Assembly (NCBI GenBank): GCA_050015075.1
Contig: JBEKCB010000007.1
Coordinates: 109,747-173,746 of the forward strand
Direction: 5' to 3'
From: Candidatus Brocadiia bacterium
GTDB lineage: Bacteria; Planctomycetota; Brocadiia; CAIUPP01
DNA: 64,000 nucleotides
In this document: in pieces, positions 1,682-55,819 of the stretch
Layout: every line of letters begins with the position of its first letter
Position numbering within the stretch: the stretch's first letter is position 1
Notes under the pieces: model-generated
The model's database searches: none
What the model was told of the DNA's origin: nothing
Seen by the model: the letters and a program-made list of their open reading frames with translations, nothing else
Made by a program: the position numbers and the translations under genes

Positions 1682-1861
1682 CAATTCCATCTGCGCCGGT
1701 CGGTTGTGCGGAGCGCCGCCCATCCGGCCGGCGTCGTCGTTGTAAGAAGTCGGCTTGATTTGCCGGCCGAATCACGATAATCTGAGCCAAACCGGGCTCG
1801 TCCTGGGACCCTTCGGTATCGTTTCAGGTTTCGAGCCCTTTCTCTCTCGTCGAGGAGCACC

Positions 1862-2155
1862 ATGTCCCCGTTTGAAATTCTCATGCTCGTCTGTTTCGGC
1901 GCCGCGTGGCCCTTCTCCATCGTCAAGGCGTATCGTTCCCGCGAGAACGGCGGCAAGAGCCTGCTGTTCCTCATCGTGATCTTCATCGGCTACCTGGCGG
2001 GCACGGCGAACAAGCTGTGGTACAAGCCCGACGCGGTCGCCGGAGTCGTTTACCTTTATATTCTGAACGGCATCATGGTCGCGGTGGACATCGCGATCCA
2101 TTTCCGCAACCAGCAGTTCGCCGCGCAGCCCGACAAGGATTTTCTGGGCGAATAA
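1862..2155 (+). CDS. Small PQ-loop/SemiSWEET-like membrane protein
   Basis: Three hydrophobic helices, FGAAWPFSIVKAYRSRENGGKS motif, GAGGAG RBS. Confidence 0.65.
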   Translation: MSPFEILMLVCFGAAWPFSIVKAYRSRENGGKSLLFLIVIFIGYLAGTANKLWYKPDAVAGVVYLYILNGIMVAVDIAIHFRNQQFAAQPDKDFLGE

Positions 2156-2196
2156 CGCATCGTCGCCCGGTTCGCCGAGAGGATTAGGAGCAATCC

Positions 2197-2280
2197 ATGG
2201 CTGATCTCCTGTACGTGGGAATCGTCATCGCGTTCTTCGCGGTCACCATCGTCGGCCTCAAGGCGCTCGACCGGATTTAG
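2197..2280 (+). CDS. 27-aa hydrophobic peptide preceding kdpF (MADLLYVGIVIAFFAVTIVGLKALDRI)
   Basis: AGGAG RBS, single TM helix. Absent from the ORF track because of its size. Confidence 0.6.
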   Translation: MADLLYVGIVIAFFAVTIVGLKALDRI

Positions 2281-2289
2281 GAAGAGACC

Positions 2290-2379
2290 ATGACCGCCAT
2301 CCACGCCGTCTGCGGCGCCGTCGCGCTCGGGCTGCTCATCTACCTCTTCGTGGCGCTGCTGAAGCCGGAGAAATTCTGA
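2290..2379 (+). CDS. kdpF: K+-transporting ATPase subunit F
   Basis: MTAIHAVCGAVALGLLIYLFVALLKPEKF with the YL-x-x-ALL-x-PEKF signature. TGATG overlap with kdpA. Confidence 0.9.
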   Translation: MTAIHAVCGAVALGLLIYLFVALLKPEKF

Positions 2380-4160
2380 TGACCGCCAATGCGTGGTTTC
2401 AGATCCTTCTCTACGTCGGCATATTGACCCTCCTCGCCATCCCGCTGGGCCTGTTCATGGCCAGCGTGTTCGAAGGCCGCGCCGGCCGGATGGAGAAAAT
2501 CCTGCGCCCCGTCGAGCGCCTCCTGTACCGTCTCTGCGGCGTCCGCGCCGACGAGGAGATGAACTGGAAGCAGTACGCGGTGGCGATGCTGCTCTTCAAC
2601 CTCTTCGGCTGCCTGCTCGTGTACGCCCTTCAGCGGATCCAGCTCTTCCTGCCGCTGAACCCGCACAAGCTCGGCGCCGTGTCGCCCGACTCGGCGTTCA
2701 ACACCGCCGTGAGCTTCGCCAGCAACACGAACTGGCAGGACTACGGCGGCGAGTCCACGATGAGCTACCTGACGCAGATGCTGGCGCTCACCGTGCAGAA
2801 TTTCGTCTCCGCCGCCACCGGCATCGCCGTCCTTGTCGCGCTGATCCGCGGGATCGTGCGGAAGGAGACCGAGCACATCGGGAATTTCTGGACCGACCTG
2901 ACGCGCAGCACGCTCTACGTCCTCATGCCGCTATCCATTGTGCTGGCGCTGGCGCTGGTCTGGCAGGGCGTGCCGCAGACGTTCGGCCCGTCGCGGACTG
3001 TGCCGTTCCTTCAGCCGACGCAGGACGACAAGGGCAAAGCGGTCGCCGAGCAGGCGCTGTCGGTCGGCCCGGTGGCCTCGCAGGTGGCCATCAAGCAACT
3101 GGGAACCAACGGCGGCGGCTTCTTCAACGCCAACTCCGCACACCCCTTCGAGAACCCGACTCCGCTCTCCAACTTCCTGGAACTCCTGGCGATCCTCCTC
3201 ATTCCGGCCGCGCTCTGTTTTACGTATGGAAAAATGGTCAAAGACATGCGCCAGGGCTTGGCCATTTTCGCGGCGATGATGGGCTTGTACCTCGTCTGCG
3301 CGATCGGGTGCGTGTGGGTCGAAGAGCGCGGCAACCCGATCCTGGCGAAGCTCGGCGTGGACCAGGCGCCGCACGACGGGGCATCGGCGCTCACGACGGC
3401 GGGCTCGAACAACGCCCTGTCCGGCGGGAACATGGAGGGCAAAGAGGTGCGCTTCGGCCCGGTCAATTCCGCCATCTGGGCCACCGCGACCACGGCGGCC
3501 TCGAACGGCTCGGTGAACTCGATGCACGACTCGTTCACGCCGCTCGGAGGGCTGATCCCGATGTGGCTCATCAAGGTGGGCGAAGTCATCTTCGGCGGCG
3601 TAGGCTCGGGCCTGTACGGCATGCTGGCGTTCGTCATCGTCACGGTCTTCGTCGCCGGCCTGATGGTCGGCCGCACGCCGGAGTACCTCGGCAAGAAGAT
3701 CGAAGCGAAAGAGATGAAGATGGCCTCGCTCGTCATCCTGATCGTCCCGCTGCTGGTCCTCATTGGCTCGGCCGCCGCCGCCGTCTGCGACGCCGGGACC
3801 AGCGGCCTGGGCAACCGCGGCCCGCACGGGCTCAGCGAAATTCTCTACGCGTACGCCAGCACCTCCAACAACAACGGCAGCGCGTTCGCCGGGCTGAACG
3901 TCAACACGCCGTACTATAACCTGACCACGGGCCTGGCCATGCTGCTCGGGCGGTACTGGCTGGCGGTGCCGATCCTGGCCATCGCCGGCTCGCTGGCGCG
4001 GAAGAAAATCGTCCCCGCCGGCGCGGGCACGCTCTCGACGCACACGCCGCTGTTCGTGGCGATGCTCGCCGGCGTCGTGGGGCTTGTCGGCGCGCTCTCC
4101 TTCATCCCGGCGTTGGCGCTGGGGCCCATCGCGGAATTTCTTCAGATGATCCGCTCATGA
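2379..4160 (+). CDS. kdpA: K+-transporting ATPase subunit A
   Basis: [22 protein letters not shown] and NNGSAFAGL selectivity loops. Confidence 0.97.
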
Positions 4161-6232
4161 GCGACAAGAAAACCGGAACGCGCCCGCTGTTCGACCCGCC
4201 GATCGTGAAACGGGCCGTGCTCGACTCGTTCCGCAAGCTCCATCCCGCGCTGCAAATCCACAACCCGGTCATGTTCACCGTGTTCATCGGCAGTGTGGTG
4301 ACGCTGGCGCTCTTCGTCCAGGCGGTGCTGGGCAAGGGCGAGGCGGCGCCCGGATTCATCCTCGCCGTCTCCGCCTGGCTGTGGCTGACGGTGCTGTTCT
4401 CGAACTTCGCCGAGGCGATGGCCGAGGGCCGCGGCAAGGCGCAGGCCGACACCCTGCGCAAGGCGCGGCGCGACATCCTGACGCGGAGACTCGCCGCGCC
4501 GAAGCGCGATGCCTTGTCGGTGCGCGTCGCCTCCGCCGACCTCCGCACCGGCGACTTCGTGCTCGTCGAAGCCGGCGAATTCATCCCCGGCGACGGCGAA
4601 GTGGTCGAGGGCGTCGCCTCCGTGGACGAGAGCGCCATCACCGGCGAGAGCGCCCCGGTGATCCGCGAGAGCGGCGGCGACCGCAGCGCCGTCACCGGCG
4701 GCACCCGCGTCCTCTCCGACTGGCTGATCGTCCGCGTCACCGCGAATCCCGGCGAGAGCTTCCTCGACCGCATGATCTCCATGGTCGAGGGCGCCAAGCG
4801 CCAGAAGACCCCGAACGAGATCGCGCTGAACATCCTCCTCGCGGCGCTGACGATCGTGTTCCTGGTCGTCTGCACCACGCTGCTGCCGTACTCCATCTAC
4901 AGCGTCAAGGAAGCCGGGAAAGGCGTCGTGGTCAGCATCACGGTGCTCGTCGCGCTGTTCGTCTGCCTGGCGCCGACGACCATCGGCGCGCTGCTCTCGG
5001 CGATCGGCATCGCCGGCATGGACCGCCTGATCCAGGCGAACTGCATCGCGATGTCCGGCCGCGCGGTCGAAGCCGCCGGCGACGTGGACGTGCTGCTCCT
5101 CGACAAGACCGGCACGATCACGCTGGGCAACCGGCAGGCGACGGAGTTCATCCCGGCGCCGGGCGTCAACCTGCCGGAACTGGCCGACGCGGCGCAGTTC
5201 GCCTCGCTGGCCGACGAGACGCCCGAGGGCCGCAGCATCGTCGTGCTCGCCAAGGAGAAATACGGCCTGCGCGGGCGCGACATCCATCCGCTGGGCGCGG
5301 CGTTCGTCCCGTTCACCGCGCAGACGCGCATGAGCGGCGTCAACCTCGAAGGCCGCCAGATCCGCAAGGGCGCCGCGGAGGCCATCGAGGCGCACGTCCA
5401 GACCCTTGGCGGCGAATTCCCCGCCGGCGTGCAGGAGAAAGTCCGCGCCATCTCGCTCGAAGGCGGCACGCCGCTGGTGGTCTCGGAAGGCGCGCGGGTG
5501 CTGGGGGTCATCCGGCTCAAGGACGTCGTCAAGGGCGGCATCCGCGAGCGGTTCCTCGAACTGCGCCGCATGGGGATCAAGACGGTGATGATCACTGGCG
5601 ACAACCCGCTGACGGCGGCTGCCATCGCGGCGGAGGCCGGGGTGGACGATTTCCTGGCCGAGGCCACGCCCGAGGCGAAGCTGAAGTACATCCGCGAATC
5701 GCAGGCCGGCGGCCGCATGGTCGCCATGACCGGCGACGGCACCAACGACGCGCCCGCGCTCGCCCAGGCCGACGTCGCCGTGGCGATGAACACCGGCACG
5801 CAGGCGGCCAAGGAAGCCGGAAACATCGTGGACCTCGACTCGAACCCGACGAAGCTCATCGAGATCGTGAGCATCGGCAAGCAGTTGCTGATGACGCGCG
5901 GCTCGCTGACGACGTTCAGCATCGCCAACGACGTGGCGAAGTATTTCGCCATCATCCCGGCGGCCTTCGCCGCGACGTATCCCGCGCTCAACGCGCTCAA
6001 CCTGATGCACCTGGCCACGCCGCAGAGCGCCATCCTCTCGGCGGTGATCTTCAACGCGCTGATCATCGTCTTCCTCATCCCGCTGGCCCTGCGCGGCGTC
6101 AAGTACCGTCCCGTCGGCGCCGAGAAGCTCCTCCGGTTGAACCTGCTGATTTACGGCCTCGGCGGCCTGGCGCTGCCATTCGTCGGCATCAAGTTGATTG
6201 ACATGATTCTCGTTCTGCTGCGGGTCGCTTGA
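4157..6232 (+). CDS. kdpB: K+-transporting ATPase subunit B (P-type ATPase)
   Basis: TGES, DKTGT phosphorylation site, [10 protein letters not shown]. Confidence 0.97.
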
Positions 6233-43005: not shown

Positions 43006-44481
43006 TTACGCGCGCGTGGCCAGTTCATGCGGCTGGACTCGGGGCGAGTGCGCGCCGCAGCTCTCCGCTTTTTCGGCCTCCGGCGTGGCCGCCGGGCTCG
43101 CGTAAAATCCGAACTCGCGCAGGAGCCGCAGTTTCGGCAGCACGTTGCCTTCCAGGTCAATGTGGAAGAACCCGGAGAAGATGTCCGGGTTGTCCGTGAT
43201 GAGCTGGAAATACCGCCGGTACCGCTCCGGGATGCGGATGCCGCCGTCCACGTACGTCTCGTGGCCGGTGCAGACGAACTCCGGCAGCAGCCAGGGCGAA
43301 AATTCGAGCTTCGCCTTCGCCGACCACTCGCGGTACACCTCCGTCTGCGGCAGAAGCGAGAGCAGGCTCGGCAGGATGCGCGCACCCATCATGCGGAACG
43401 AGATCATCTGGAAGAGCGACTGCCGGAAGTCCTCGATCGTCTCGAACGGGAATCCCCAGACGTAGAACGTGTCCACGCGCGGGAAGATCGGGATCGCCTT
43501 CGGGACGATCTCGAGCGCCTGCGCGGCGGTGAAGCCCTTGCGGATGATCTCCAGCACGCGGTCCGAGCCGGACTCGATGCCGAACCGCAACTCCAGGCAG
43601 CCGCACGCGGCCATCGCGCGCATCATCTCCTCGTCCACCAGGTTCACGCGGCCGAACGCCTTCCATTCCAGCTTCAGCCCCGTGCGCGCCAGCTCGTCGC
43701 AGAACGCCATCACCTGCCGTTTGCCGGAGACGAAGAACTCGTCCTGGAAAAGGAACATCTCCGCGCCGGCGCGCTCATGGATGAGCTTCATCTCCGCCAC
43801 GATGTTCCGCGGGCTGCGCGAGTAGCTCTCCAAGTTCCAGACCGGCGCCACCGAGCAGAACGTGCACGGATACGGGCAGCCGCGGCTGGTCATCAACCCG
43901 TAACCGGCGTACCGTTTCAGCTCGATCTTGTCGAAGGCGGGGAACGGGATGCTGTCGAGGTCGCGGATGCGCGCGCGGTCGGGATTGTGGCGGATTTTTC
44001 CCACGCCGTCGCGGTAAGAGATGCCGGCGACGCCGGAGAGGTCGCCGCCGGACTTCAGCGCGCGCAGGAGGTCCGGCCCGGTCAGCTCGCCTTCGCCGCG
44101 GCAGATGACGTCAATCCATGGAAAGCGCGCGAGCACTTTCTCTTCGACCGACTTCGACCCGACGCCGCCGAGGACCAGCGTGCGGCCGGGATAGCGCTTC
44201 TTCAGGGCCTGCAGCGCCAGGACGGTGAACGGCAGCAGGTTCGCCATGCACGAAAGGCCGATGACCGGCGCGGGCTCTTTCAGGAAATCGAGGAAGGCGG
44301 CGATGTCGAACGGATCGTCGGTCGGGCAGGTCTGGTAGTCGCGGAAGTCCACCTCGAAGCCGGCGTCCTCGAGCGCGCGAGTGAGATACAGGCAGCCGAG
44401 CGGCACGTGCAGCTCGCGCTCGACCTCCTCGCCGTAGCGCATGAAGAGCATGTTCAGGTTGATCAGCGTGATGTCGGCCAT
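43006..44481 (-). CDS. B12-binding radical SAM enzyme
   Basis: PLGCLYL, VLGG, GEGE, SRGCPYPCTFC (CxxxCxxC), QDEFF, FGIESGS, GFPFET. Confidence 0.9.
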   Translation of the reverse strand: MADITLINLNMLFMRYGEEVERELHVPLGCLYLTRALEDAGFEVDFRDYQTCPTDDPFDIAAFLDFLKEPAPVIGLSCMANLLPFTVLALQALKKRYPGRTLVLGGVGSKSVEEKVLARFPWIDVICRGEGELTGPDLLRALKSGGDLSGVAGISYRDGVGKIRHNPDRARIRDLDSIPFPAFDKIELKRYAGYGLMTSRGCPYPCTFCSVAPVWNLESYSRSPRNIVAEMKLIHERAGAEMFLFQDEFFVSGKRQVMAFCDELARTGLKLEWKAFGRVNLVDEEMMRAMAACGCLELRFGIESGSDRVLEIIRKGFTAAQALEIVPKAIPIFPRVDTFYVWGFPFETIEDFRQSLFQMISFRMMGARILPSLLSLLPQTEVYREWSAKAKLEFSPWLLPEFVCTGHETYVDGGIRIPERYRRYFQLITDNPDIFSGFFHIDLEGNVLPKLRLLREFGFYASPAATPEAEKAESCGAHSPRVQPHELATRA

Positions 44482-44491
44482 GCTGTTTTCC

Positions 44492-45202
44492 CTAGGGTTG
44501 GTCCGGACGCATGCCTGTAACCACCATCGGCGGCTTGGGCACCTGCGGCGTGACAGCGGCATCCGTGTCCGGCGGAGTCGCCGGCGGATTCGTAGTCGCC
44601 GGGCTGCCGGGCGGCGTCTCCGCGGGAAGCGACGGCGGCCGGTCCGGTCGAACGCCGCCGAAGTTGGTCGGGCGCTTCGGATTGTTCACGGCATCGGTAT
44701 CCGCCGGTTCTGCTACGAAGCCAAAGACCGCGTGGGAAAACACCGGAGCGCTCCCCGTCGTTGACTGCGCGGCGGAGGGCGGCTGGTCGGGTCTGCTGCC
44801 GGTCGGCGGAGGCGGCGCTGATTCGCCGCACCCGGCCAAATCCGCTCCGAGCGCGACGAGCATCACCGCCGCGGCCGCGCCCATGAGGACCGGCCGGAGT
44901 TTCGCGTCAACGTTGGTCCGGCTGATGATCGCTTCGAGCTGCGCATGCGGGATGCCCGCGAGCATCGCGATTTCCGAGGGGCGCAGTTCCAGCCCGATCG
45001 TCTTCGCCGCCTCGGCGCGCTGCTCCAGGAGCAATCGGCGGAACTGCGGGTCCACCGCCGCCTTTTTGATCAGCACCTCGACCCCGCGCGGCACGCCGCC
45101 CAGCGGCTTGCCCGCGCCCGGCGGCCGCCCGCCGACGATCGTCGTCCGCACCGACTCCTGCTCGATTCGGCGTCCGCCGCCCTTCTGGTCCGGAGCGCTC
45201 AT
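44492..45202 (-). CDS. Protein with NHLP-like leader, hydrophobic segment/lipobox and three GxRPD repeats; candidate RiPP-type substrate
   Basis: EVLIKKAAVDPQFRRLLL, VMLVALGADLAGC, TGSRPDQP/GGVRPDRP/TGMRPDQP. Confidence 0.65.
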   Translation of the reverse strand: MSAPDQKGGGRRIEQESVRTTIVGGRPPGAGKPLGGVPRGVEVLIKKAAVDPQFRRLLLEQRAEAAKTIGLELRPSEIAMLAGIPHAQLEAIISRTNVDAKLRPVLMGAAAAVMLVALGADLAGCGESAPPPPTGSRPDQPPSAAQSTTGSAPVFSHAVFGFVAEPADTDAVNNPKRPTNFGGVRPDRPPSLPAETPPGSPATTNPPATPPDTDAAVTPQVPKPPMVVTGMRPDQP

Positions 45203-45246: not shown

Positions 45247-45366
45247 ATTCTACACCCGTTGAATGAAAAAGCAACTGAAATGTTACGTCCTGCGGCGAGA
45301 GGCGGCCATCATTGCCCTCCGAAAATGCGCCGGGCCGATTGACAGAATTACGGCTGCGTGTAGAAT
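45247..45366. promoter_or_regulatory. Divergent sigma70-like promoters
   Basis: Plus strand TTGACA(45339)-16 nt-TAGAAT; minus strand TTGCTT(45274)-16 nt-TAGAAT. Both contain GTGTAGAAT. Confidence 0.5.
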
Positions 45367-45404
45367 GGCGCAGGGCGAACGGCAACAGGAACGGGAAGGG
45401 TCCG

Positions 45405-46100
45405 ATGAAACCAGGATCGCGCGGCGCTTCGGCGGGTGCGGGCGGAAGCCGGCCCGAGCTGGAAAGTCTCGGTGAAGTCGGCATCCTCTTCGCCGACCTT
45501 TCCGGCTACACCCAGGTCGTCTATCAGTGCGTAGGCGATGAAGACCGGCTTCAGCGCCTGTCCATGGCGCTTTACCGGCTCTTCAATGCGCCCGGCCATG
45601 CGCATCCGGACATTTCCGTGGAAGGCTACGCCGGGGACGGCTTCCTGGCGTTCAGCCGCGGCCGGACGCCGGTCCGCACCATGTACGACTTCGCGCTGAC
45701 TTTGCACAGCCGTTTCGACGCGGAGACTCGGCCGCTGATGCTGAACCTGGGCTTTCGCGCCAGCGCGGCGCTGCGCACCGGGCTTCACATCGGGCGCGTC
45801 TGGCGCATGAAGTTGTCCGCAGAGCCGGAGCCGCCGCGCTATTCCAACATCTCCGACGCGATCAACGTGGCCAGCCGCGTGGTGGCCGGGCAGGTCTGCC
45901 GCCGGCGCGGCCTAGCCGTGACGCGCGACTGCTATCGCCGCCTGCTCTACGCCGGCCGCAAGGAAGTCCGCGAGCCGGACGAAGTCATCCAGGACCGCAA
46001 CCAGTATCCGGAGCCCATCGAGATCTATCACATCCGGCCGGAGGAGCATCAGCAGATCGTCACCCGCTCGGCCGGACAGGCGAAGAATCCGCCGGCGTGA
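45405..46100 (+). CDS. Class III nucleotidyl cyclase domain protein
   Basis: ILFADLSGYT, YAGDGFLA, RTGLHIG, DAINVASRV. Confidence 0.8.
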   Translation: MKPGSRGASAGAGGSRPELESLGEVGILFADLSGYTQVVYQCVGDEDRLQRLSMALYRLFNAPGHAHPDISVEGYAGDGFLAFSRGRTPVRTMYDFALTLHSRFDAETRPLMLNLGFRASAALRTGLHIGRVWRMKLSAEPEPPRYSNISDAINVASRVVAGQVCRRRGLAVTRDCYRRLLYAGRKEVREPDEVIQDRNQYPEPIEIYHIRPEEHQQIVTRSAGQAKNPPA

Positions 46101-46147
46101 GGCGTGCGCATTCGTTCTGAGACGTCCGCAGAGGTGAGGAGAGTGTG

Positions 46148-48436
46148 ATGGGACTGACGATCCGCTTCCAGGGCGGCGCGCGCGCCGGAGAAGTTCTCGA
46201 CTTCGGCGACCAGGTCGAGACCGTCGTCTTCGGCCGCGATGCCGACAGGTGCCAGGTGGTTTTTCCGCCGGAAGAGACGAAGGTCGGGCGCGAGCACTGC
46301 GCGCTCCGGCGCGTCCTGGGCCGCTACCGCCTGCAGCTCAACAAGGACAACCTCGTCCTGCTCGACGGCAAGCCGGCGATGGAAGACCAGGAACTCGGCG
46401 CGACGGCCGACCTGCAACTGGGGCCGGACGGGCCTCGGCTGATCGCCGAGACGACCGGGAAGGCCGGCCTGCTTCCGACGATGGACCAGGGGCGGCGCGC
46501 GGGCCAGGCGACGATGGTCCGCGATGCGGGCCGGACGGCCAGGAAGGGCCGGAACATCGCTCTTGCGGTGGCCGCGTTGCTCGTGATCCTCGGCGTCGTC
46601 GTCCTCACCGTGGCGCGGCGGCAGGAGGAGAAAATTCGCAGCGTCACCGAATTGACCCAGGCGGATAAGGCGCTGATCAACGACATGGCCGGCAAGCTCG
46701 CGACGGTCGCCGCCAAGTCCGAGGCGCTGCCGATGGCGCTGGCGAAAGCGCGGCCGTCGGTCTACATGGTCGTGCTGCGCTTCCAGCCCGAGGGGAAATC
46801 GTCCTACGAAGAGGTGCAGCTCGGCACGGCGTGGGTCATCGCCGACGGCGTGCTCGCCACCAACGCGCACGTCGCGGAGGTGTTCAACAACCTGGGCAAG
46901 ACAATGGAGGACCTCAAGCCGCTCGGCGTCCTCAAGGAGTACGTGGTCCGCTCGAACGCGCCTGAGCCGAAGACGCATCGCATCAAGTCCGTGCGCATTC
47001 ACCCCGGTTACGAGGAGTTCCAGAAGATCTGGGGCGAACTCAAGCCCGGCTACGGACAATCGCTCAGGACCCTGCGCATTGTGGACGCCGCCGGCCCGGC
47101 TTGCGACGTCGGGCTCCTGCAGGTGGACGAGGCGGACCAGGCCGGCCTGGCCGCGAAGCTGCCGGTCGCAACGCCGAAGGAACTCGGCGAGCTGCTCGCC
47201 GGCCGATCGGTCGGATACGTCGGTTACCCGGGCGAGAACCTGGCGCTCATCAGCCAGACGCATCCGAACCCCGTCACGCAGGTCGGCAGCATTACCGCCG
47301 TGACCGATTTTCTCGGCGTCAGCTCGAAGGACGGTCAACTGATCCAGAATTCGCTGCCGCTCGCCGGCGGCGCCAGCGGCAGTCCGGTCCTGAACGCGGA
47401 CGGACAGGTCATTGCCATCCTCAGCGCGGGCAACATGGTGGTGACGAGCGCGGGCCGGACTCCGTCGGCGGCCGGCATCAATTTCGCCCAGCGCGTTGAC
47501 CTGGTCACCGAACTGCTCGAGGGACGGGCCGCGAAAGCCCAGCCGGAACGCTCCGCCGCGTGGCGAAGGCAGATACCGGAGGTGTACGACACCGGGCTCG
47601 CCCTGCTGCACAAGGAACTGGTTCCTGAATACGTGAAGTTCCGGGAAGTCCAACTGGCCGGCGACGATCAGAACGTGGAAGTCCAGGCGCGGGAAATCTC
47701 CCACCAGGCCGGCAAGCTCACCGCATCCGCCGAAGCCGCCAATCCGGCGACGTATAAGCTGACGGCGACTCTTCCCTTGAACGCCGTGTGCCTGGTGGTG
47801 GTCGCCTCGAGCGACGACGCCTGCGATCTCGCCTTGAACGTGGTGGAAAAGGGCGGCGCCGCAACGGGCCAGGAGCATCCCGGACAGAAAATCCACGAGG
47901 AAGTTCCCTGGGCGAGCGTGACCCAGTTCGAAGTGCGCGACACGGAGCCGATCGAGATCACGGCCTCCGCCAGTTCGGCCAACGCGCCGGTGGAAGTGTA
48001 CGTGTACCAGCTCGAAAGGAAAGAGCCGACGCCGGAAAAGCGCCTTGGCAAGATCCTCGCCTCCTGGCAGAACGATCTCAAAGAGAACAAGGGCGGCGAA
48101 TTCACGACCGAGGAGGTGATCGCCCAGCAAGGCGAGTTAGGCGAACCGACCGCCGAATTGAAAACGGCGATCTACAAAATGGACCTGTCTATCGCCGCCG
48201 AGGGCCATTACATGGCGGTCGCCGCCGGATCGCCCGGCCAGAACGTCGCCATCCTCGTGGCTGCGGTCAACGGCGACGAGCGGACTGAGCTTGCGAAAGA
48301 CACGCGCGACCTTCCCTGCACCGCCTGCGCATTCGATGCGGACGGGAAGGTGAAGACCGAGATCTACGTCCTGGGCCAGACCGCCCGGACCAAGTTCAAC
48401 CTCTGGGTCTATCGAGCCGTGCCCAAGATGCCGTGA
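46148..48436 (+). CDS. FHA-TM-trypsin-like serine protease with C-terminal beta domains
   Basis: FGR...VGREHC (FHA), TM helix, TNAHV / DVGLL / GGASGSPV catalytic triad. Confidence 0.85.
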   Translation: MGLTIRFQGGARAGEVLDFGDQVETVVFGRDADRCQVVFPPEETKVGREHCALRRVLGRYRLQLNKDNLVLLDGKPAMEDQELGATADLQLGPDGPRLIAETTGKAGLLPTMDQGRRAGQATMVRDAGRTARKGRNIALAVAALLVILGVVVLTVARRQEEKIRSVTELTQADKALINDMAGKLATVAAKSEALPMALAKARPSVYMVVLRFQPEGKSSYEEVQLGTAWVIADGVLATNAHVAEVFNNLGKTMEDLKPLGVLKEYVVRSNAPEPKTHRIKSVRIHPGYEEFQKIWGELKPGYGQSLRTLRIVDAAGPACDVGLLQVDEADQAGLAAKLPVATPKELGELLAGRSVGYVGYPGENLALISQTHPNPVTQVGSITAVTDFLGVSSKDGQLIQNSLPLAGGASGSPVLNADGQVIAILSAGNMVVTSAGRTPSAAGINFAQRVDLVTELLEGRAAKAQPERSAAWRRQIPEVYDTGLALLHKELVPEYVKFREVQLAGDDQNVEVQAREISHQAGKLTASAEAANPATYKLTATLPLNAVCLVVVASSDDACDLALNVVEKGGAATGQEHPGQKIHEEVPWASVTQFEVRDTEPIEITASASSANAPVEVYVYQLERKEPTPEKRLGKILASWQNDLKENKGGEFTTEEVIAQQGELGEPTAELKTAIYKMDLSIAAEGHYMAVAAGSPGQNVAILVAAVNGDERTELAKDTRDLPCTACAFDADGKVKTEIYVLGQTARTKFNLWVYRAVPKMP

Positions 48437-48440
48437 GCCG

Positions 48441-51053
48441 ATGTCATGCCGGTGGTTGAGGAACCTGATGGACAACGGGCTTGCTTCCTGGTTCAGAATA
48501 TGGCACCCGCGGTATCGGGGCATTCTGGTTCAACTGGCCGTCGCCGCCGCGATTGCCGCCGCGCTCTTATACGTCCAGCAGGGTTTGCTCGACCTTCTGA
48601 CGCTGTCGCTGGCGTCCAACCCTGCGGCGCCCGCCGAGTCGGGCGAGCATGCGGACAAGGCGCTGACGGTCCTCTCGAATGATGCCGCCTCGCTGGGCCT
48701 CACGCCGGCATCGCTGCCGCTGCTCGTCCTGGGACTCTTCATCCTGGTGGCGGTCGTCGCGAGCGCAATAGACTACTGGAAAGTGCGCGTGACGGGCCGG
48801 CTGAGAGTCCGAAGCGAAGATGACCTGGAAGCCGAGATCCTCGCGCACCTGCTGCGGCAGGACGACGCGTTCTTCGCCCGCCATTCGCCCTCCGAGACGG
48901 TCAATCGCCTGGCGGTGGATGTGTACCGGACGACCGAAAACCGGCCGAACCTGATGCTCGCCGTGGCCTCGGTCGCCCTCATCGTCAGCAGCCTGGGCTA
49001 CTTTGTGCAGAAGGACTGGCGGCTGGCGGCGGTGGCTTTCGGAGGCTGCGTCGCGGGCGCCCTGTGGACCTTCCACATGACCAAGCGCGTCAAGGACATG
49101 GACGCCAGCTACCTCCGCTCCGACGACCGGGTCAAATCGCACTTCGAGGATTGCCTGAGAGCGTCTCCGGAGATCCAGGTCGGCGACCTCCATCGCAAGG
49201 TCCGCCGGCATTTTGAGGAGGTCCAGGAGGACCGCACGCAGACGTATCTGCGCTATGTGGGCCTCAACGCGGCGCTGAGCGTGGGCAGCACGGTGTGGTA
49301 CTTGCTGGCATTCATCGCCATGATCTTCGTCGCCCTGCACCTGCGAGGGAGCAGCGGCGAGAACTCGTCGCTGGCCCTGGTCCCGGTGGTGATCTGGGCG
49401 TTGCCGCGCCTGTTCAACAGCGCCTCGTCGCTGGTCTTCCTCAACCTGCAGTTCCAGCTCGCCCGGACCAGCATGAAGCGGCTGCTGGAATACGAGGCCC
49501 TCGCGTCGCCGCCGCCGGCGGGGCAGGCGCAGACGCGCGCCGGCGAGGAAATCGCTCGCGTGGAACCGATCCGCGCCGACCGGGTTACCTATCGGTACGC
49601 AGCCGCCGACGGCACGCAACAAGTCGGCCTGTCGGAGGTCAGCGCCACGTTCGTCCCCGGCCAGTGGACGGCGCTGGTGGGCACAGCCGGCTCGGGCAAG
49701 TCCACCTTGCTCAGGCTGCTGCTCCGGCGGGCCAAGCCGCATGAGGGCGAAATCTTTTACGGCGACCGGCCGCTTCAATCGCTTTCCGACCGGCAACTCG
49801 CCGATCTCCTATCCGTCATGCCCCAGTCGGTGGCGCTGCTGGATGCCGCGATTGGGGAGAACCTGCTGTTCGGCAGAGCCGCGCCCGCCGGCCGGACCTC
49901 GCCCGAGCTGACCGACGCGGACCTCGAAGTGGTGGAAAGCGCGGGCCTCGCAAAGGTCTGCCGGCTTAAAGCGCTCGACATGCTTCCGGAAAAGGAACGC
50001 GGTTGCGCGGAGTTGGCCGGAGGAATCGCGGAGACCCGGAACCGGCTTCGCGAGCGGCTGCGGAAGGAATGCGGCGCGGTCATTCTGCCGTTCGAGGAAG
50101 GCCGCGCGGACGCGAAACACTGGGTGCTCGAGCACCTGTTGAACGGGCGGTGCGACCGTGAAAAGGCCGCGCGGATCCTGCTGCATAAGACGCGCGCCGG
50201 CAGCTTGAAGGCGCTGCCCGGAACGCCGCTGGGCGTCGAACTCGTCCGCGCCGGGCGGGCGGTCCTGCAGCAAAACCGCCACCTGCTCCAGATCCCCAAC
50301 TTCCACGTCTACTGTCAACTGGCCCCGTCGGCGATTGACGAGAGGGTCTGGCAACTGCGGTCGTCCAGCGTCGCGCTCGCCGACGGCGCCGCGCTGTCAA
50401 CGGCGGAAACCCTGGCCTTCTGCGTGATCGCTTTGACGAGTTGCCCGTCCGAGTTCGCGGGCGCCGAAGGTTCCAGAGACTGGGGCAACCCGGACTTCAA
50501 GAACGAGTGCGCCGGGACGATCGCCGGGCTTAGAGAGATGCTCGGCGACGCCTGTAAGGGGTTCGACATCGGCGCGATTCATCCGAACCTGACCTGGCGC
50601 GAGAACCTCATCTTCGGCGTGGTGCAGTCGCAGAACGTCCGAACGCGCCGCCTGGCGGACGAGGCCGTCCTGAACTTCGTCGAGCAGGACGGGCTGCGGC
50701 AGGCGTTCACGCGGCTCGGGCTCGAATTCGGCATCGGCCGCCTCGGCGGCAACCTCTCGGGCGGGCAGCGGCAGCTCGTCGCCTTATGCCGCTCGCTCCT
50801 GCGGCGGACTCCGGTGCTCGTCCTCGACGAGCCGACCTCCGCCCTGGACCCGGCCAGTTGCTCCGCGGTCCTGGCGCTGCTTCACGCCTGGAAGATGAAC
50901 CGGATCCTCATCACGGTGAGTCATGACGTGGAGCTGATGCGGCATGCCGACGTCATCCAGGTGATGGATGGAGGCCGTTTGGTCGCGAAGGGTTCCTTCC
51001 CGGAATTGGAGGCGGGGTCCGACGTTTTCCGCAAGATCCTGCGACAGACATGA
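48441..51053 (+). CDS. ABC exporter (TMD plus NBD) with a large insertion inside the NBD
   Basis: TM domain, GTAGSGKS, MPQ Q-loop; LSGGQRQ, VLVLDEPT and VSH follow only after a long insert. Confidence 0.88.
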   Translation: MSCRWLRNLMDNGLASWFRIWHPRYRGILVQLAVAAAIAAALLYVQQGLLDLLTLSLASNPAAPAESGEHADKALTVLSNDAASLGLTPASLPLLVLGLFILVAVVASAIDYWKVRVTGRLRVRSEDDLEAEILAHLLRQDDAFFARHSPSETVNRLAVDVYRTTENRPNLMLAVASVALIVSSLGYFVQKDWRLAAVAFGGCVAGALWTFHMTKRVKDMDASYLRSDDRVKSHFEDCLRASPEIQVGDLHRKVRRHFEEVQEDRTQTYLRYVGLNAALSVGSTVWYLLAFIAMIFVALHLRGSSGENSSLALVPVVIWALPRLFNSASSLVFLNLQFQLARTSMKRLLEYEALASPPPAGQAQTRAGEEIARVEPIRADRVTYRYAAADGTQQVGLSEVSATFVPGQWTALVGTAGSGKSTLLRLLLRRAKPHEGEIFYGDRPLQSLSDRQLADLLSVMPQSVALLDAAIGENLLFGRAAPAGRTSPELTDADLEVVESAGLAKVCRLKALDMLPEKERGCAELAGGIAETRNRLRERLRKECGAVILPFEEGRADAKHWVLEHLLNGRCDREKAARILLHKTRAGSLKALPGTPLGVELVRAGRAVLQQNRHLLQIPNFHVYCQLAPSAIDERVWQLRSSSVALADGAALSTAETLAFCVIALTSCPSEFAGAEGSRDWGNPDFKNECAGTIAGLREMLGDACKGFDIGAIHPNLTWRENLIFGVVQSQNVRTRRLADEAVLNFVEQDGLRQAFTRLGLEFGIGRLGGNLSGGQRQLVALCRSLLRRTPVLVLDEPTSALDPASCSAVLALLHAWKMNRILITVSHDVELMRHADVIQVMDGGRLVAKGSFPELEAGSDVFRKILRQT

Positions 51054-54434: not shown

Positions 54435-54620
54435 ATGTCATTGATTACGGTGGATGCGAAAGGCAACGTGTACCTCGTCCCCGATAATGTGCTGAAGAAG
54501 TATTGCAGGAAAGTCGGCCGGATCAGCGACAAGAAGCGCAAGGGAACCGCCCAGGTCGAAGGCCAGGACTGGTTGATTTGCCAGGCCTGGCTGAACTGTT
54601 CAGGAACCAAGGGCGGCTGA
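54435..54620 (+). CDS. Candidate RiPP precursor peptide A
   Basis: MSLITVDAKGNVYLVP...QVEGQ-DWLICQAWLNCSGTKGG. Paralog of 55855..56052. Confidence 0.8.
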   Translation: MSLITVDAKGNVYLVPDNVLKKYCRKVGRISDKKRKGTAQVEGQDWLICQAWLNCSGTKGG

Positions 54621-54640
54621 TTTCCACTGCGGAAGAACTC

Positions 54641-55819
54641 ATGGTAGCGCAGATCGCTGCGACGTCCGGAGCGTACATGAAGAAGGTGAACTGGCTTCAC
54701 CTCCGGGCGCACGACTCCTGCAACCTGTCCTGCTCGTACTGTGTCATGTCGGCGCGCCGCGGGCGCCCCGGCGCGGACGCCATGACGGCGGAACAGGCCG
54801 TTGAGATCCTGCGGCTGCTCCTGGAGCATTCGTCCGCGCCCAGGATTACGGTTGAGATTTCCGGCGGCGAGCCCCTTCTTTGCGGCAGCCGCTGGATCGC
54901 CGCCGTGTGCGGCGGGCTCCGCGCGATGGAGAGGCAGTACGCGAAGCGGCTCGATCTTTGGATCACCACGAACGGCACTCTCCTGACCGAGGAAATCATT
55001 GCGATCATCCGGGACTGCAAGGCCAAGCTTTCCGTGGGCGTGGACGCCCCGGCAGGCGTCTCGGGCGAGGTCAAGACGCTCGATCGCCGGGTCCGCAAGG
55101 GAATCGAGCTGCTCCAGAAGCTGTACGCGACGCCGGGCATCAATGCCGTGGCCACGCTGCCGGCGATGCGCCACGTCACGCGATTCATGGACGAGCTGAA
55201 GCAGATGAACATCCGAGTGTTCCGGCTCACCGCCGTCAACAGCCGGGGCCGCGCGTCGTCGGCGCCGGCGCTGCTCCCCACGGCCAAGGACGCCCTCGCC
55301 TGCACGATGCGGCTAATCCGGTACATGGACCGCTGCGGTTTCTCCATCGTTGAGGCGAGCGCGCTGGATCGCGTCTACCGTTATATGGGAGACGTGTACG
55401 AACCTAACTTCTGCAACGCTCCCGCTTGTCCGGCGGGGAGCGGATTCCTGGCGGTGGACGCAAACGGCGACGTCTATCCCTGCGGGAATGAAACGCGAGA
55501 CCGTTTCATCATGGGCAACATCTACGACGGCTTCGACGGACCGCGCAGCCGACGCGTTCTCTCCGCCTACCACGGCGAGCTTGCCCCGTTTGTCCGTTGC
55601 GTGTATTGTAAGGCCGGCCGGATATGCCATTATGGGTGTCCGGGATGCCTGCATGAAGGAGACACGAGGCATTTCGACGCGGAATGCCAATTGACGCAGA
55701 TGCTGTTCGAGCGTTTCGAGCGAAACCGCGTGGCGATTGGGGAGATATATCGAAAGGCAAAAAGCAACGCGCCGGCGTGCGGCCGCAAACAATCTTCGGG
55801 CGTTCAAGGTGAACGCTAG
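54641..55819 (+). CDS. Radical SAM/SPASM-domain maturase 2 (start may be 54677)
   Basis: CNLSCSYC, SGGEPLL, TTNG, CNAPACPAG...GDVYPC, CVYC...CHYGCP. Confidence 0.9.
   Translation: MVAQIAATSGAYMKKVNWLHLRAHDSCNLSCSYCVMSARRGRPGADAMTAEQAVEILRLLLEHSSAPRITVEISGGEPLLCGSRWIAAVCGGLRAMERQYAKRLDLWITTNGTLLTEEIIAIIRDCKAKLSVGVDAPAGVSGEVKTLDRRVRKGIELLQKLYATPGINAVATLPAMRHVTRFMDELKQMNIRVFRLTAVNSRGRASSAPALLPTAKDALACTMRLIRYMDRCGFSIVEASALDRVYRYMGDVYEPNFCNAPACPAGSGFLAVDANGDVYPCGNETRDRFIMGNIYDGFDGPRSRRVLSAYHGELAPFVRCVYCKAGRICHYGCPGCLHEGDTRHFDAECQLTQMLFERFERNRVAIGEIYRKAKSNAPACGRKQSSGVQGER

Follow-up and report, generated by a model that had tools for sequence, protein, structure and literature searches.

A conserved two-gene cassette pairing a cobalamin-type radical SAM enzyme with a putatively exported protein that has a leader-like domain in a Candidatus Brocadiia bacterium and other lineages

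The DNA analyzed here is a 64,000-nucleotide stretch (the window, to whose numbering all positions refer) from a Candidatus Brocadiia bacterium (assembly GCA_050015075.1, contig JBEKCB010000007.1, positions 109,747 to 173,746 of the forward strand), and its subject is a pair of adjacent genes on the minus strand between positions 43006 and 45202. The upstream gene, P0001, encodes a precursor-like protein, and the downstream gene, P0002, encodes a class B (cobalamin-type) radical S-adenosylmethionine (SAM) enzyme whose ATG follows the TAG of P0001 after exactly 10 nt; the ATG of P0001 is itself preceded, a few bases 5', by AAGGAG. A first-pass annotation of this DNA had read the pair as a hybrid between a lipoprotein and a ribosomally synthesized peptide with post-translational modifications (RiPP), in which a leader of the nitrile-hydratase-like leader peptide (NHLP) type would bring repeats to the enzyme in the cytoplasm for later display on a lipid-anchored surface protein. 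The elements from which that reading had been built, namely the leader-like string EVLIKKAAVDPQFRRLLL (residues 42 to 59 of P0001), a hydrophobic stretch ending in LAGC, three GxRPD repeats and the enzyme gene 10 nt downstream, are all present in the sequence at the places reported. The two genes comprise the following features.

44492..45202, minus strand: precursor-like gene P0001 (236 aa, coordinates including the stop), with an N-terminal motif, an NHLP-clan domain, a lipobox export signal and a proline-rich tail with three copies of G-x-R-P-D-x-P
45116..45145, minus strand: N-terminal motif TTIVGGRPPG (residues 20-29), disordered in the model, with G-x-R-P in common with the tail motif
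44918..45088, minus strand: Os1348-type NHLP-clan helical domain, the leader-like part (residues 39-95)
44828..44896, minus strand: hydrophobic segment (residues 103-121) and lipobox L-A-G-C (residues 122-125), a putative internal export signal or signal-anchor
44780..44800, minus strand: motif 1, G-S-R-P-D-Q-P (residues 135-141), 10 residues after the lipobox Cys
44636..44656, minus strand: motif 2, G-V-R-P-D-R-P (residues 183-189)
44495..44515, minus strand: motif 3, G-M-R-P-D-Q-P (residues 230-236), the final residues of the protein
43006..44481, minus strand: class B (cobalamin-type) radical SAM enzyme P0002 (491 aa, coordinates including the stop)
44068..44409, minus strand: B12-binding domain (residues 25-138; Pfam PF02310, 49.3 bits, cut-off 32.1)
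43414..43890, minus strand: Radical SAM core (residues 198-356; Pfam PF04055, 60.1 bits, cut-off 29.5)
43855-43878, minus strand: cluster motif C202-x3-C206-x2-C209, within the Radical SAM core
43387..43569 (residues 305-365) and 43108-43125 (residues 453-458), minus strand: predicted docking surface for the leader-like domain, from complex prediction

The two genes travel together well beyond this genome. An alignment search seeded with the precursor, keeping one genome per species, gave 78 loci with at least 10 phylum-level labels, of which Planctomycetota was the most frequent; the rest include Verrucomicrobiota, Lentisphaerae/Victivallales, Zixibacteria, Coatesbacteria, Omnitrophota, Anaerolineales, Desulfomonile, Acidobacteria, Muiribacteriota and others. 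A P0002 ortholog, mostly 68-77% identical to P0002, lies directly downstream on the same strand in 65 of the 78 (56 full length and 9 cut by a contig end), preceded by one to six tandem precursor genes, and 8 of the 13 loci without the enzyme have less than 750 bp of downstream DNA, including one (L051) in which at least 11 tandem precursor copies run up to the end of the locus. The converse alignment search of metagenome contigs, seeded with the enzyme, gave 80 loci, 64 of them with a precursor gene upstream; among the 16 misses, the upstream DNA is shorter than 500 bp in 14 and amounts to only 671 bp in one, and the last is an in-frame run-on. At this locus (L110, positions 1788-4823), no stop separates the radical SAM gene from a preceding family gene that has eight motifs and a C-terminal domain in duplicate; the resulting single open frame of 1012 residues may reflect a natural fusion, the loss of a stop or faulty assembly.

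Phyletic co-occurrence gives the same picture as synteny. In an even sample of 301 Planctomycetota genomes (ortholog threshold for the enzyme, E≤1e-120), the enzyme was found in 8 and the precursor family in 8, with both in 7 and always on one contig; in the single precursor-only genome the enzyme is cut at a contig end, and in the single enzyme-only genome the enzyme stands at a contig start. The expectations of the first-pass annotation that the gene pair should be syntenic elsewhere and that the motif proteins should co-occur with this radical SAM clade are thus borne out, and, as judged from gene order, the two genes are a conserved cassette. It is patchily distributed, since only 3 of 41 genomes of the same class, the window's own counted, carry a P0001-type protein.

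P0002 has the class B architecture, with the B12-binding domain first and then the Radical SAM core with its CxxxCxxC motif, and all 46 of the aligned orthologs retain the three cluster cysteines (C202, C206 and C209). Across phyla these orthologs are 59-96% identical to P0002, with a mean column identity of 72% in the 46-sequence alignment, which marks the enzyme as unusually conserved at the sequence level. The AlphaFold2 (AF2) model of P0002 has a predicted local distance difference test (pLDDT) score of 82.9, and a Foldseek search placed it closest to MgmA (9ccb, E value of 3e-19), the glutamine C-methylase of methyl-coenzyme M reductase, and then to CysS, TsrM, OxsB, AprD4 and TokK (E values from 3e-19 to 4e-16 for MgmA, CysS, TsrM, OxsB and TokK). 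By analogy with its closest relatives among enzymes with peptide or protein substrates, which are C-methylases, P0002 would probably catalyze C-methylation. Two side observations concern the enzyme. Its last residues (465-491; 43009-43089) carry a tail, E-S-C-G-A-H-S-P-R-x-x-P-x-E-L-A-T-R, that is nearly invariant in the 46 orthologs yet is modelled as disordered (pLDDT of about 25), and the conserved Cys and His of this tail might reach the active site or a cofactor. The source genome also holds 12 matches to P0002 at E≤1e-10, i.e., 11 further B12-radical-SAM-like genes, which is rich for a genome of 4.6 Mb; within the window, a 438-aa radical SAM gene (54503-55819, plus strand; Radical_SAM and Fer4_12 domains) and a 710-aa gene with B12-binding and Radical_SAM domains, 24% identical to P0002 (56049-58181, plus strand), are found, probably the first of the pairs counted in the first-pass annotation.

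In P0001, the claim of an NHLP-like leader stood for the clan and fell for the canonical family: residues 40 to 92 score 43.4 bits (46.2 bits in the genome search) against the NCBIfam model NF038399 of the Os1348 family of the NHLP clan, whose cut-off is 40, whereas the canonical NHLP leader model TIGR03793 gives 12.3 bits against a cut-off of 50.9. Among 30 relatives, NF038399 is matched by all at E≤0.01 and TIGR03793 by one (E value of 1.7e-4). The AF2 model of P0001 places four helices at residues 39 to 95, with block-mean pLDDT values of 94 to 98 over residues 41 to 100, and a helix at residues 103 to 120, and leaves the first 38 residues and the tail disordered. The top Foldseek match of the leader-like domain is Os1348 (PDB 6lk7; probability of 0.97, root mean square deviation of 2.5 Å over 55 columns), with an E value of 0.28 for so small a domain, and the domain opens in the family alignment with I-P-R-G-I-E-V-L-V-K-K-A-A-V-D-P-x-F. 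Acyl carrier protein models are matched by three of the 30 family members (P0013, P0094 and one other), and P0013 contains two NHLP-like domains in one predicted protein; such acyl-carrier-matching and double-domain members may be gene-call fusions with neighbors.

Complex prediction supports binding of this leader-like domain to the enzyme. The enzyme and precursor residues 1 to 104 were modelled together, each with its own alignment, in three runs with three controls; the runs gave an ipSAE of 0.85, the best of the three controls 0.00. In a calibration that is rough because we supplied the alignments ourselves, 58 of 80 solved complexes attained the mark of 0.85, as did 2 of 110 mismatched pairs. 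The docking runs agree in at least 39% of contacts with a partner pLDDT of at least 69, and the confident interface is predicted to bring leader residues 34 to 46 and 74 to 97 against enzyme residues 305 to 365 and 453 to 458, near which the AF2 model of the enzyme has helices at 307-313, 319-329, 349-365 and 443-456.

P0001 is a member of a large family. A word-seeded search found 452 homologs, and an exhaustive search found 1397 clusters at 50% identity with E≤0.001, 798 of them with E≤1e-10; the source names of the few members shown are either "hypothetical protein" or refer to a C-terminal TonB/AgmX domain. By these comparisons the family is large, without a functional name in the records examined and fixed in architecture, the order in the alignment being the N-terminal motif, the NHLP-clan domain, a hydrophobic stretch, usually a small residue followed by Cys, and a variable proline-rich tail with the motif. 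P0001 itself conforms to the lipobox pattern [LVI][ASTVI][GAS]C, with the positively charged K101 and R103 ahead of a hydrophobic stretch at 105 to 121 and then L122-A-G-C125, while the family alignment has A-F-L-G-R-A-A-A-V-M-L-A-A-L-G at the hydrophobic stretch. In 361 nonredundant relatives this stretch is followed by [GAS]-Cys in 243, by AxA without Cys in 58, by neither in 41 and by another Cys in 13; a further 5 relatives are without the hydrophobic segment and 1 is too short. A twin-arginine-like motif, RRxF[LMV]G, precedes the stretch in 104 of the 361 (about 29%) and reads RRAFLK in divergent clades, which suggests that part of the family may use twin-arginine translocation (Tat), a route that exports proteins only after their maturation in the cytoplasm. 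P0001 has K-L-R-P-V-L-M-G at this place and no twin-arginine motif, so its signal appears to be Sec-like.

The tail of P0001 holds TGSRPDQP (G135), GGVRPDRP (G183) and, directly before the stop, the C-terminal TGMRPDQP (G230-P236). Three copies of G.RPD were reached in 0 of 200,000 shuffles of the whole protein and in 0 of 200,000 shuffles of the tail alone, the chance expectation being 0.011 per protein; the repeats are not there by chance. Nor are they peculiar to P0001, conservation of GxRPD in homologs having been one of the points on which the first-pass annotation staked its reading: with a position matrix iterated from the strict motif, we found 1013 instances in 360 tails, at least one in each of 343, mostly two or three and at most 16. 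Over these instances the successive positions are occupied by G (98%), I (54%), R (64%), P (82%), D (81%), R (44%) and P (80%), with P-[PV]-T-[RK] ahead of the motif, and divergent clades have G-x-R-A-D-R-P. The first motif starts no more than 20 residues from the Cys in 225 of 244 lipobox-type relatives (median of 9; 10 in P0001), and 70 of the 343 motif-bearing relatives end, as P0001 does, exactly at the last Pro of a motif. The linkers between motifs are hypervariable, and the tails vary in length between about 20 and several hundred residues. Two peat metagenome runs (X3 and X5) have one contig each that skips 48 and 120 bases of tail-coding DNA (44584-44633 and 44706-44827), beside further strain differences, and linker length between motifs seems to vary among strains. 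The tails of some relatives contain TonB_C/AgmX, CarboxypepD_reg, S-layer-like or other folded parts; since these are envelope domains, the tail fits an extracytoplasmic location.

A second conserved element, which the first-pass annotation had not mentioned, lies at the other end of the protein. The N-terminal TTIVGGRPPG is embedded in the family consensus E-Q-x-A-V-R-T-T-I-V-G-G-R-P-P-G, and T21, I22, V23, G24, R26, P27, P28 and G29 are invariant in 30 of 30 aligned relatives. Among 131 precursor genes, 75 have this motif and 56 lack it while retaining the leader-like domain, the signal and the tail motifs, and the short forms without it occur only in multicopy loci. Counted by locus, at least one gene has the motif in 68 of 71, and it is present in all 40 loci for which the script detected just one precursor gene; the three loci lacking it have near-variants or lie on a 3.4-kb contig. 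As G-x-R-P is common to both motifs and the N-terminal one reads IVGPRPDD (G-P-R-P-D-D) in divergent clades, it looks like a further copy of the tail element on the cytoplasmic side, and may be a second substrate, a pseudosubstrate or the real one.

These observations can be brought together in a scheme to which we assign a probability of about 0.58, namely, leader-guided radical modification in the cytoplasm followed by general export, in which one cut by signal peptidase would take off both leader and signal. It would proceed in four steps: (i) the Os1348-type NHLP-clan domain would serve as the leader, docking on the cobalamin-type radical SAM enzyme in the cytoplasm; (ii) the enzyme would modify G-x-R-P-D-x-P of the unfolded proline-rich tail by radical chemistry, most likely by C-methylating an unactivated carbon, and may also act on the related N-terminal G-G-R-P-P-G; (iii) the internal hydrophobic signal would take the tail over the inner membrane, by a Sec-type route here and by a twin-arginine-like one in about 29% of relatives; and (iv) signal peptidase II would cut at the lipobox Cys125, so that leader and signal leave together and what stays behind is the modified tail, lipid-anchored in the envelope. 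The proposed order of events is suggested by a leader-like domain predicted to dock, an export signal with a peptidase site and a motif just after that site. As for the target residue, the Gly is nearly invariant, the Pro and Asp are conserved at about 80%, and the Arg, at 64%, is the least conserved position of the motif core, with Q, A, M and S as substitutes; since it is less conserved than Gly, Pro or Asp, C-methylation of Arg is only one of several options, and the alignment does not favor it. On the sequence evidence, the interpretation given in the first-pass annotation is partly supported.

Several observations weigh against this scheme. The compared genomes are kin and all are metagenome-assembled genomes (MAGs), making the counts given above descriptive only. 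At five loci a family gene has no enzyme nearby in spite of 7.4 kb or more of DNA downstream, although for one of the five (L085) the same MAG has a complete cassette elsewhere (L039). Lipoprotein signals are usually N-terminal; the Cys of P0001 is residue 125, with about 100 residues, including a folded domain, before the hydrophobic stretch, which is atypical of such a signal. Because of this distance, and because 41 of the 361 relatives have neither Cys nor AxA, it is possible that the hydrophobic segment is an uncleaved transmembrane anchor. The N-terminal TTIVGGRPPG is, in the alignments, at least as conserved as the tail motif and could be the true substrate instead, and the confident predicted interface includes neither of the two motifs. 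P0002 falls far under the cut-off of every named NCBIfam model, the best being ApyD (NF050148) at 171.5 against 750 bits, followed by BchE, HpnJ and rSAM_ocin_1 (TIGR03975; 105.5 against 281.85 bits), and class B radical SAM enzymes also catalyze, according to the accessible text of PMC10635010, ring contractions, cyclizations and C-S or C-P bond formation.

The position of the hydrophobic segment and the conservation of the N-terminal motif lead to an alternative that we regard as unlikely but by no means negligible: P0001 would be a bitopic envelope protein of the TonB/GltG-like kind, with its N-terminal domain in the cytoplasm and the segment as an uncleaved anchor, the enzyme would bind that domain and modify the cytoplasmic TTIVGGRPPG, or would merely be tethered by the domain, and the periplasmic motifs would be unmodified interaction motifs. 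The near-universal presence of the N-terminal motif (all 30 aligned relatives, 68 of 71 loci and all 40 single-gene loci) speaks for it, as do some relatives with matches to GltG or GltJ models and TonB_C/AgmX domains at their C-terminal end, an AF2 helix (residues 103 to 120) long enough for a transmembrane anchor, and the consideration that a tail inserted cotranslationally would never meet a cytoplasmic enzyme. It accounts poorly, however, for the 56 of 131 precursor genes that have no N-terminal motif and nevertheless keep the domain, the signal and the tail motifs, and for the [GAS]-Cys or AxA that follows the segment in 301 of 361 relatives, which would be unexpected for a plain anchor; the fixed short distance of the first tail motif from the Cys, and the G-P-R-P-D-D of divergent clades, by which the N-terminal motif appears as another copy of the tail motif, also argue against it.

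If modification before general export is right, the cassette needs no dedicated protease or exporter, because general export and signal peptidase would do both jobs, and the neighborhood is consistent with this. Clustering of all open reading frames (ORFs) in the 78 precursor-seeded loci revealed no third conserved gene, the next family occurring in 5 of 78, and no protease or transporter conserved with the pair. The neighbors known for Os1348-type genes (GNAT, HEXXH peptidase-like protein and SagB-type dehydrogenase) are likewise not conserved in these 78 loci, where the B12-radical-SAM gene is the sole conserved neighbor. A cluster of 56 minus-strand ORFs in 41 loci is by its look an antisense shadow of the precursor genes, as judged from one example (L078). 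On these comparisons the unit is two genes, without protease or exporter. In the window, a string of genes divergent from the pair does include a peptidase and a transporter:

45312-51053, plus strand: cyclase-like gene, trypsin-like peptidase and ABC transporter string, divergent from the pair
46145-48436, plus strand: trypsin-like peptidase, 763 aa
48441-51053, plus strand: ABC transporter, 870 aa, with an insertion in the ATPase domain

Among the 158 loci, these cyclase-like, peptidase and ABC transporter genes recur only in a same-genus MAG (L015), and the peptidase and transporter were rejected as parts of the cassette for that reason; the GH42 gene downstream of the pair recurs at none of the 158.

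This composition bears on a further alternative, in which P0001 would be a multicore RiPP precursor, each G-x-R-P-D-x-P serving as a core that, once modified, is cut out in the periplasm or outside and set free as a small peptide, for instance with a signaling or antimicrobial role. The variation in copy number from 1 to 16, the hypervariable linkers, the tandem arrays of up to six precursor genes (at least 11 in L051) and the 70 of 343 proteins that stop at the last Pro of a motif, as if at a unit boundary, are all what such a precursor would look like. Excision, on the other hand, calls for a protease, and none is conserved beside the pair; the flanks of the motif have no conserved cleavage site beyond P-x-T-[RK], and many tails have folded envelope domains, e.g., TonB_C or CarboxypepD_reg, after a single motif. 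We consider this alternative improbable.

There is still less to recommend a third possibility, in which the cassette works as proposed and the enzyme is no methyltransferase, introducing instead a cross-link, an epimerization, a ring contraction or another radical rearrangement within or between motifs. The class does contain the nonmethylating BchE, HpnJ, OxsB and AprD4, which score 56 to 137 bits against P0002 or stand among its fold matches, and no named methylase model reaches its cut-off on P0002. The best NCBIfam hit and, among fold matches with protein or peptide substrates, the closest are nonetheless methylases (MgmA, TsrM, CysS, TokK and ApyD), and the aromatic or Cys residues on which known radical SAM cross-links draw are absent from the motif. 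That the adjacency is incidental, with the enzyme acting on an unrelated small molecule or lipid and P0001 an ordinary proline-rich lipoprotein, is scarcely credible, since nothing specific favors it beyond the finding of either gene in only 8 of 301 genomes of the phylum, which makes the function dispensable, and it is opposed by the two-way synteny, the phyletic co-occurrence, the 10-nt spacing and the docking predicted against controls.

Leader-guided modification of an exported protein would place the cassette close to several known systems. In proteusins of the polytheonamide type, precursors with NHLP leaders are matured by B12-dependent radical SAM C-methyltransferases (TIGR03975), and a dedicated peptidase-containing exporter is found beside the precursor. 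The likeness lies in a nitrile-hydratase-like leader domain paired with a class B radical SAM enzyme on a ribosomal substrate. Both proteins of the pair nonetheless score under the proteusin cut-offs (P0002, 105.5 against 281.85 bits for TIGR03975; P0001, 12.3 against 50.9 bits for TIGR03793), the pair comes without an epimerase, a peptidase-ABC exporter or a Gly-Gly site, an export signal with a lipobox comes after the leader, and the "core" is a seven-residue motif repeated in proteins whose length can reach several hundred residues. Os1348 of Pseudomonas sp. Os17 (PDB 6lk7), which shares with P0001 the domain recognized by NF038399 and is the best structural match of the leader-like part, is described in the portion of PMC7726476 consulted as a soluble 85-aa putative modified precursor whose neighbors encode a GNAT, a HEXXH peptidase-like protein and a SagB-type dehydrogenase; unlike P0001, it has no radical SAM partner, export signal or G-x-R-P-D motif.

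In export logic the nearest system is that of the bufferins, which, according to the available text of PMC11626156, are modified in the cytoplasm and then exported by Sec and cut by signal peptidase with no dedicated exporter, and which in this respect offer a precedent for cytoplasmic modification before Sec export. As far as that text describes them, they differ in having an MNIO and a DUF2063 partner, a chemistry on Cys and an N-terminal signal peptide with no separate leader domain, whereas here a leader-like region of about 100 residues stands ahead of the signal. On the enzyme side, MgmA and Mmp10 are, like the proposed role of P0002, class B radical SAM enzymes that C-methylate protein residues, and MgmA (9ccb) is the best fold match; its identity to P0002 is, however, 21%, its model TIGR04014 scores 80.8 bits on P0002 against a cut-off of 360, and neither of the two enzymes employs a leader domain. 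The first-pass annotation had pointed to Mmp10. Homology of P0002 to it was rejected, as the domain order is reversed, the radical SAM domain of Mmp10 coming first (residues 1-257, in the accessible part of PMC8828468), and Mmp10 is absent among the sequence and fold matches listed; the likeness is one of analogy only. A Tyr-ligated cluster and an iron loop are further marks of Mmp10. ApyD, a class B radical SAM enzyme that modifies RiPPs (beta-methyl-Tyr, aminopyruvatide) and, in the text available from PMC10635010, recognizes its precursor through a dedicated binding element, is the best NCBIfam match of P0002. The match of 171.5 against 750 bits covers only positions 20-395 of the 645 of the model, and ApyD, as described there, has a RiPP recognition element and methylates Tyr, a residue that the motif here does not contain. 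Membership in the canonical NHLP, proteusin or ApyD families was accordingly rejected, all scores being under cut-off; by its parts the cassette comes closest to proteusins and by the logic of its export to bufferins, and it shows the defining features of neither.

Traces of the locus in the environment were seen in public sequencing runs. The window stretch recurs in peat metagenome runs from many coded studies (presence only), and metatranscriptome run X24 contains a 162-nt contig identical to 44618-44779, an RNA library being able to contain DNA; its other four pieces are 33- to 35-nt fragments that run on unlike the window. A promoter and terminator scan gave one promoter-like site, which belongs to the divergent plus-strand gene, and terminator-like sites at the level of shuffled sequence.

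To conclude, a search of the full-text literature, with subscription-only papers and supplements outside its reach, gave no description of this architecture or motif. We offer, as a tentative proposal whose odds we put a little short of even, that the family represents an undescribed and widespread class of radical-SAM-modified envelope proteins. With a RiPP-type leader placed before a Sec or Tat lipoprotein signal, RiPP export and leader removal would fall to the general export machinery and to signal peptidase II, and G-x-R-P-D-x-P in the product would contain a new modification, a C-alkylated residue (Gly, Arg, Pro or Asp) with a constant spacing to the lipid anchor. Such a product could be an envelope tether or recognition element in anaerobic Planctomycetota, Verrucomicrobiota, Zixibacteria and others. 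To our knowledge, protein modifications by cobalamin-dependent radical SAM enzymes have so far been essentially the methylations of methyl-coenzyme M reductase, and the cassette, if the proposal is true, would bring a new substrate motif to that list, and probably a modified residue that is new as well. The family extends over many uncultured anaerobic lineages (798 clusters, E≤1e-10), so that one biochemical experiment, kept simple by the minimal size of two genes, would annotate hundreds of genomes. More broadly, the boundary between RiPP natural products and ordinary protein maturation would be blurred, with leader-guided logic applied to lipoproteins and large envelope proteins and housekeeping secretion replacing the dedicated protease and exporter, and the two-gene unit probably marks a new way of chemically modifying exported proteins.

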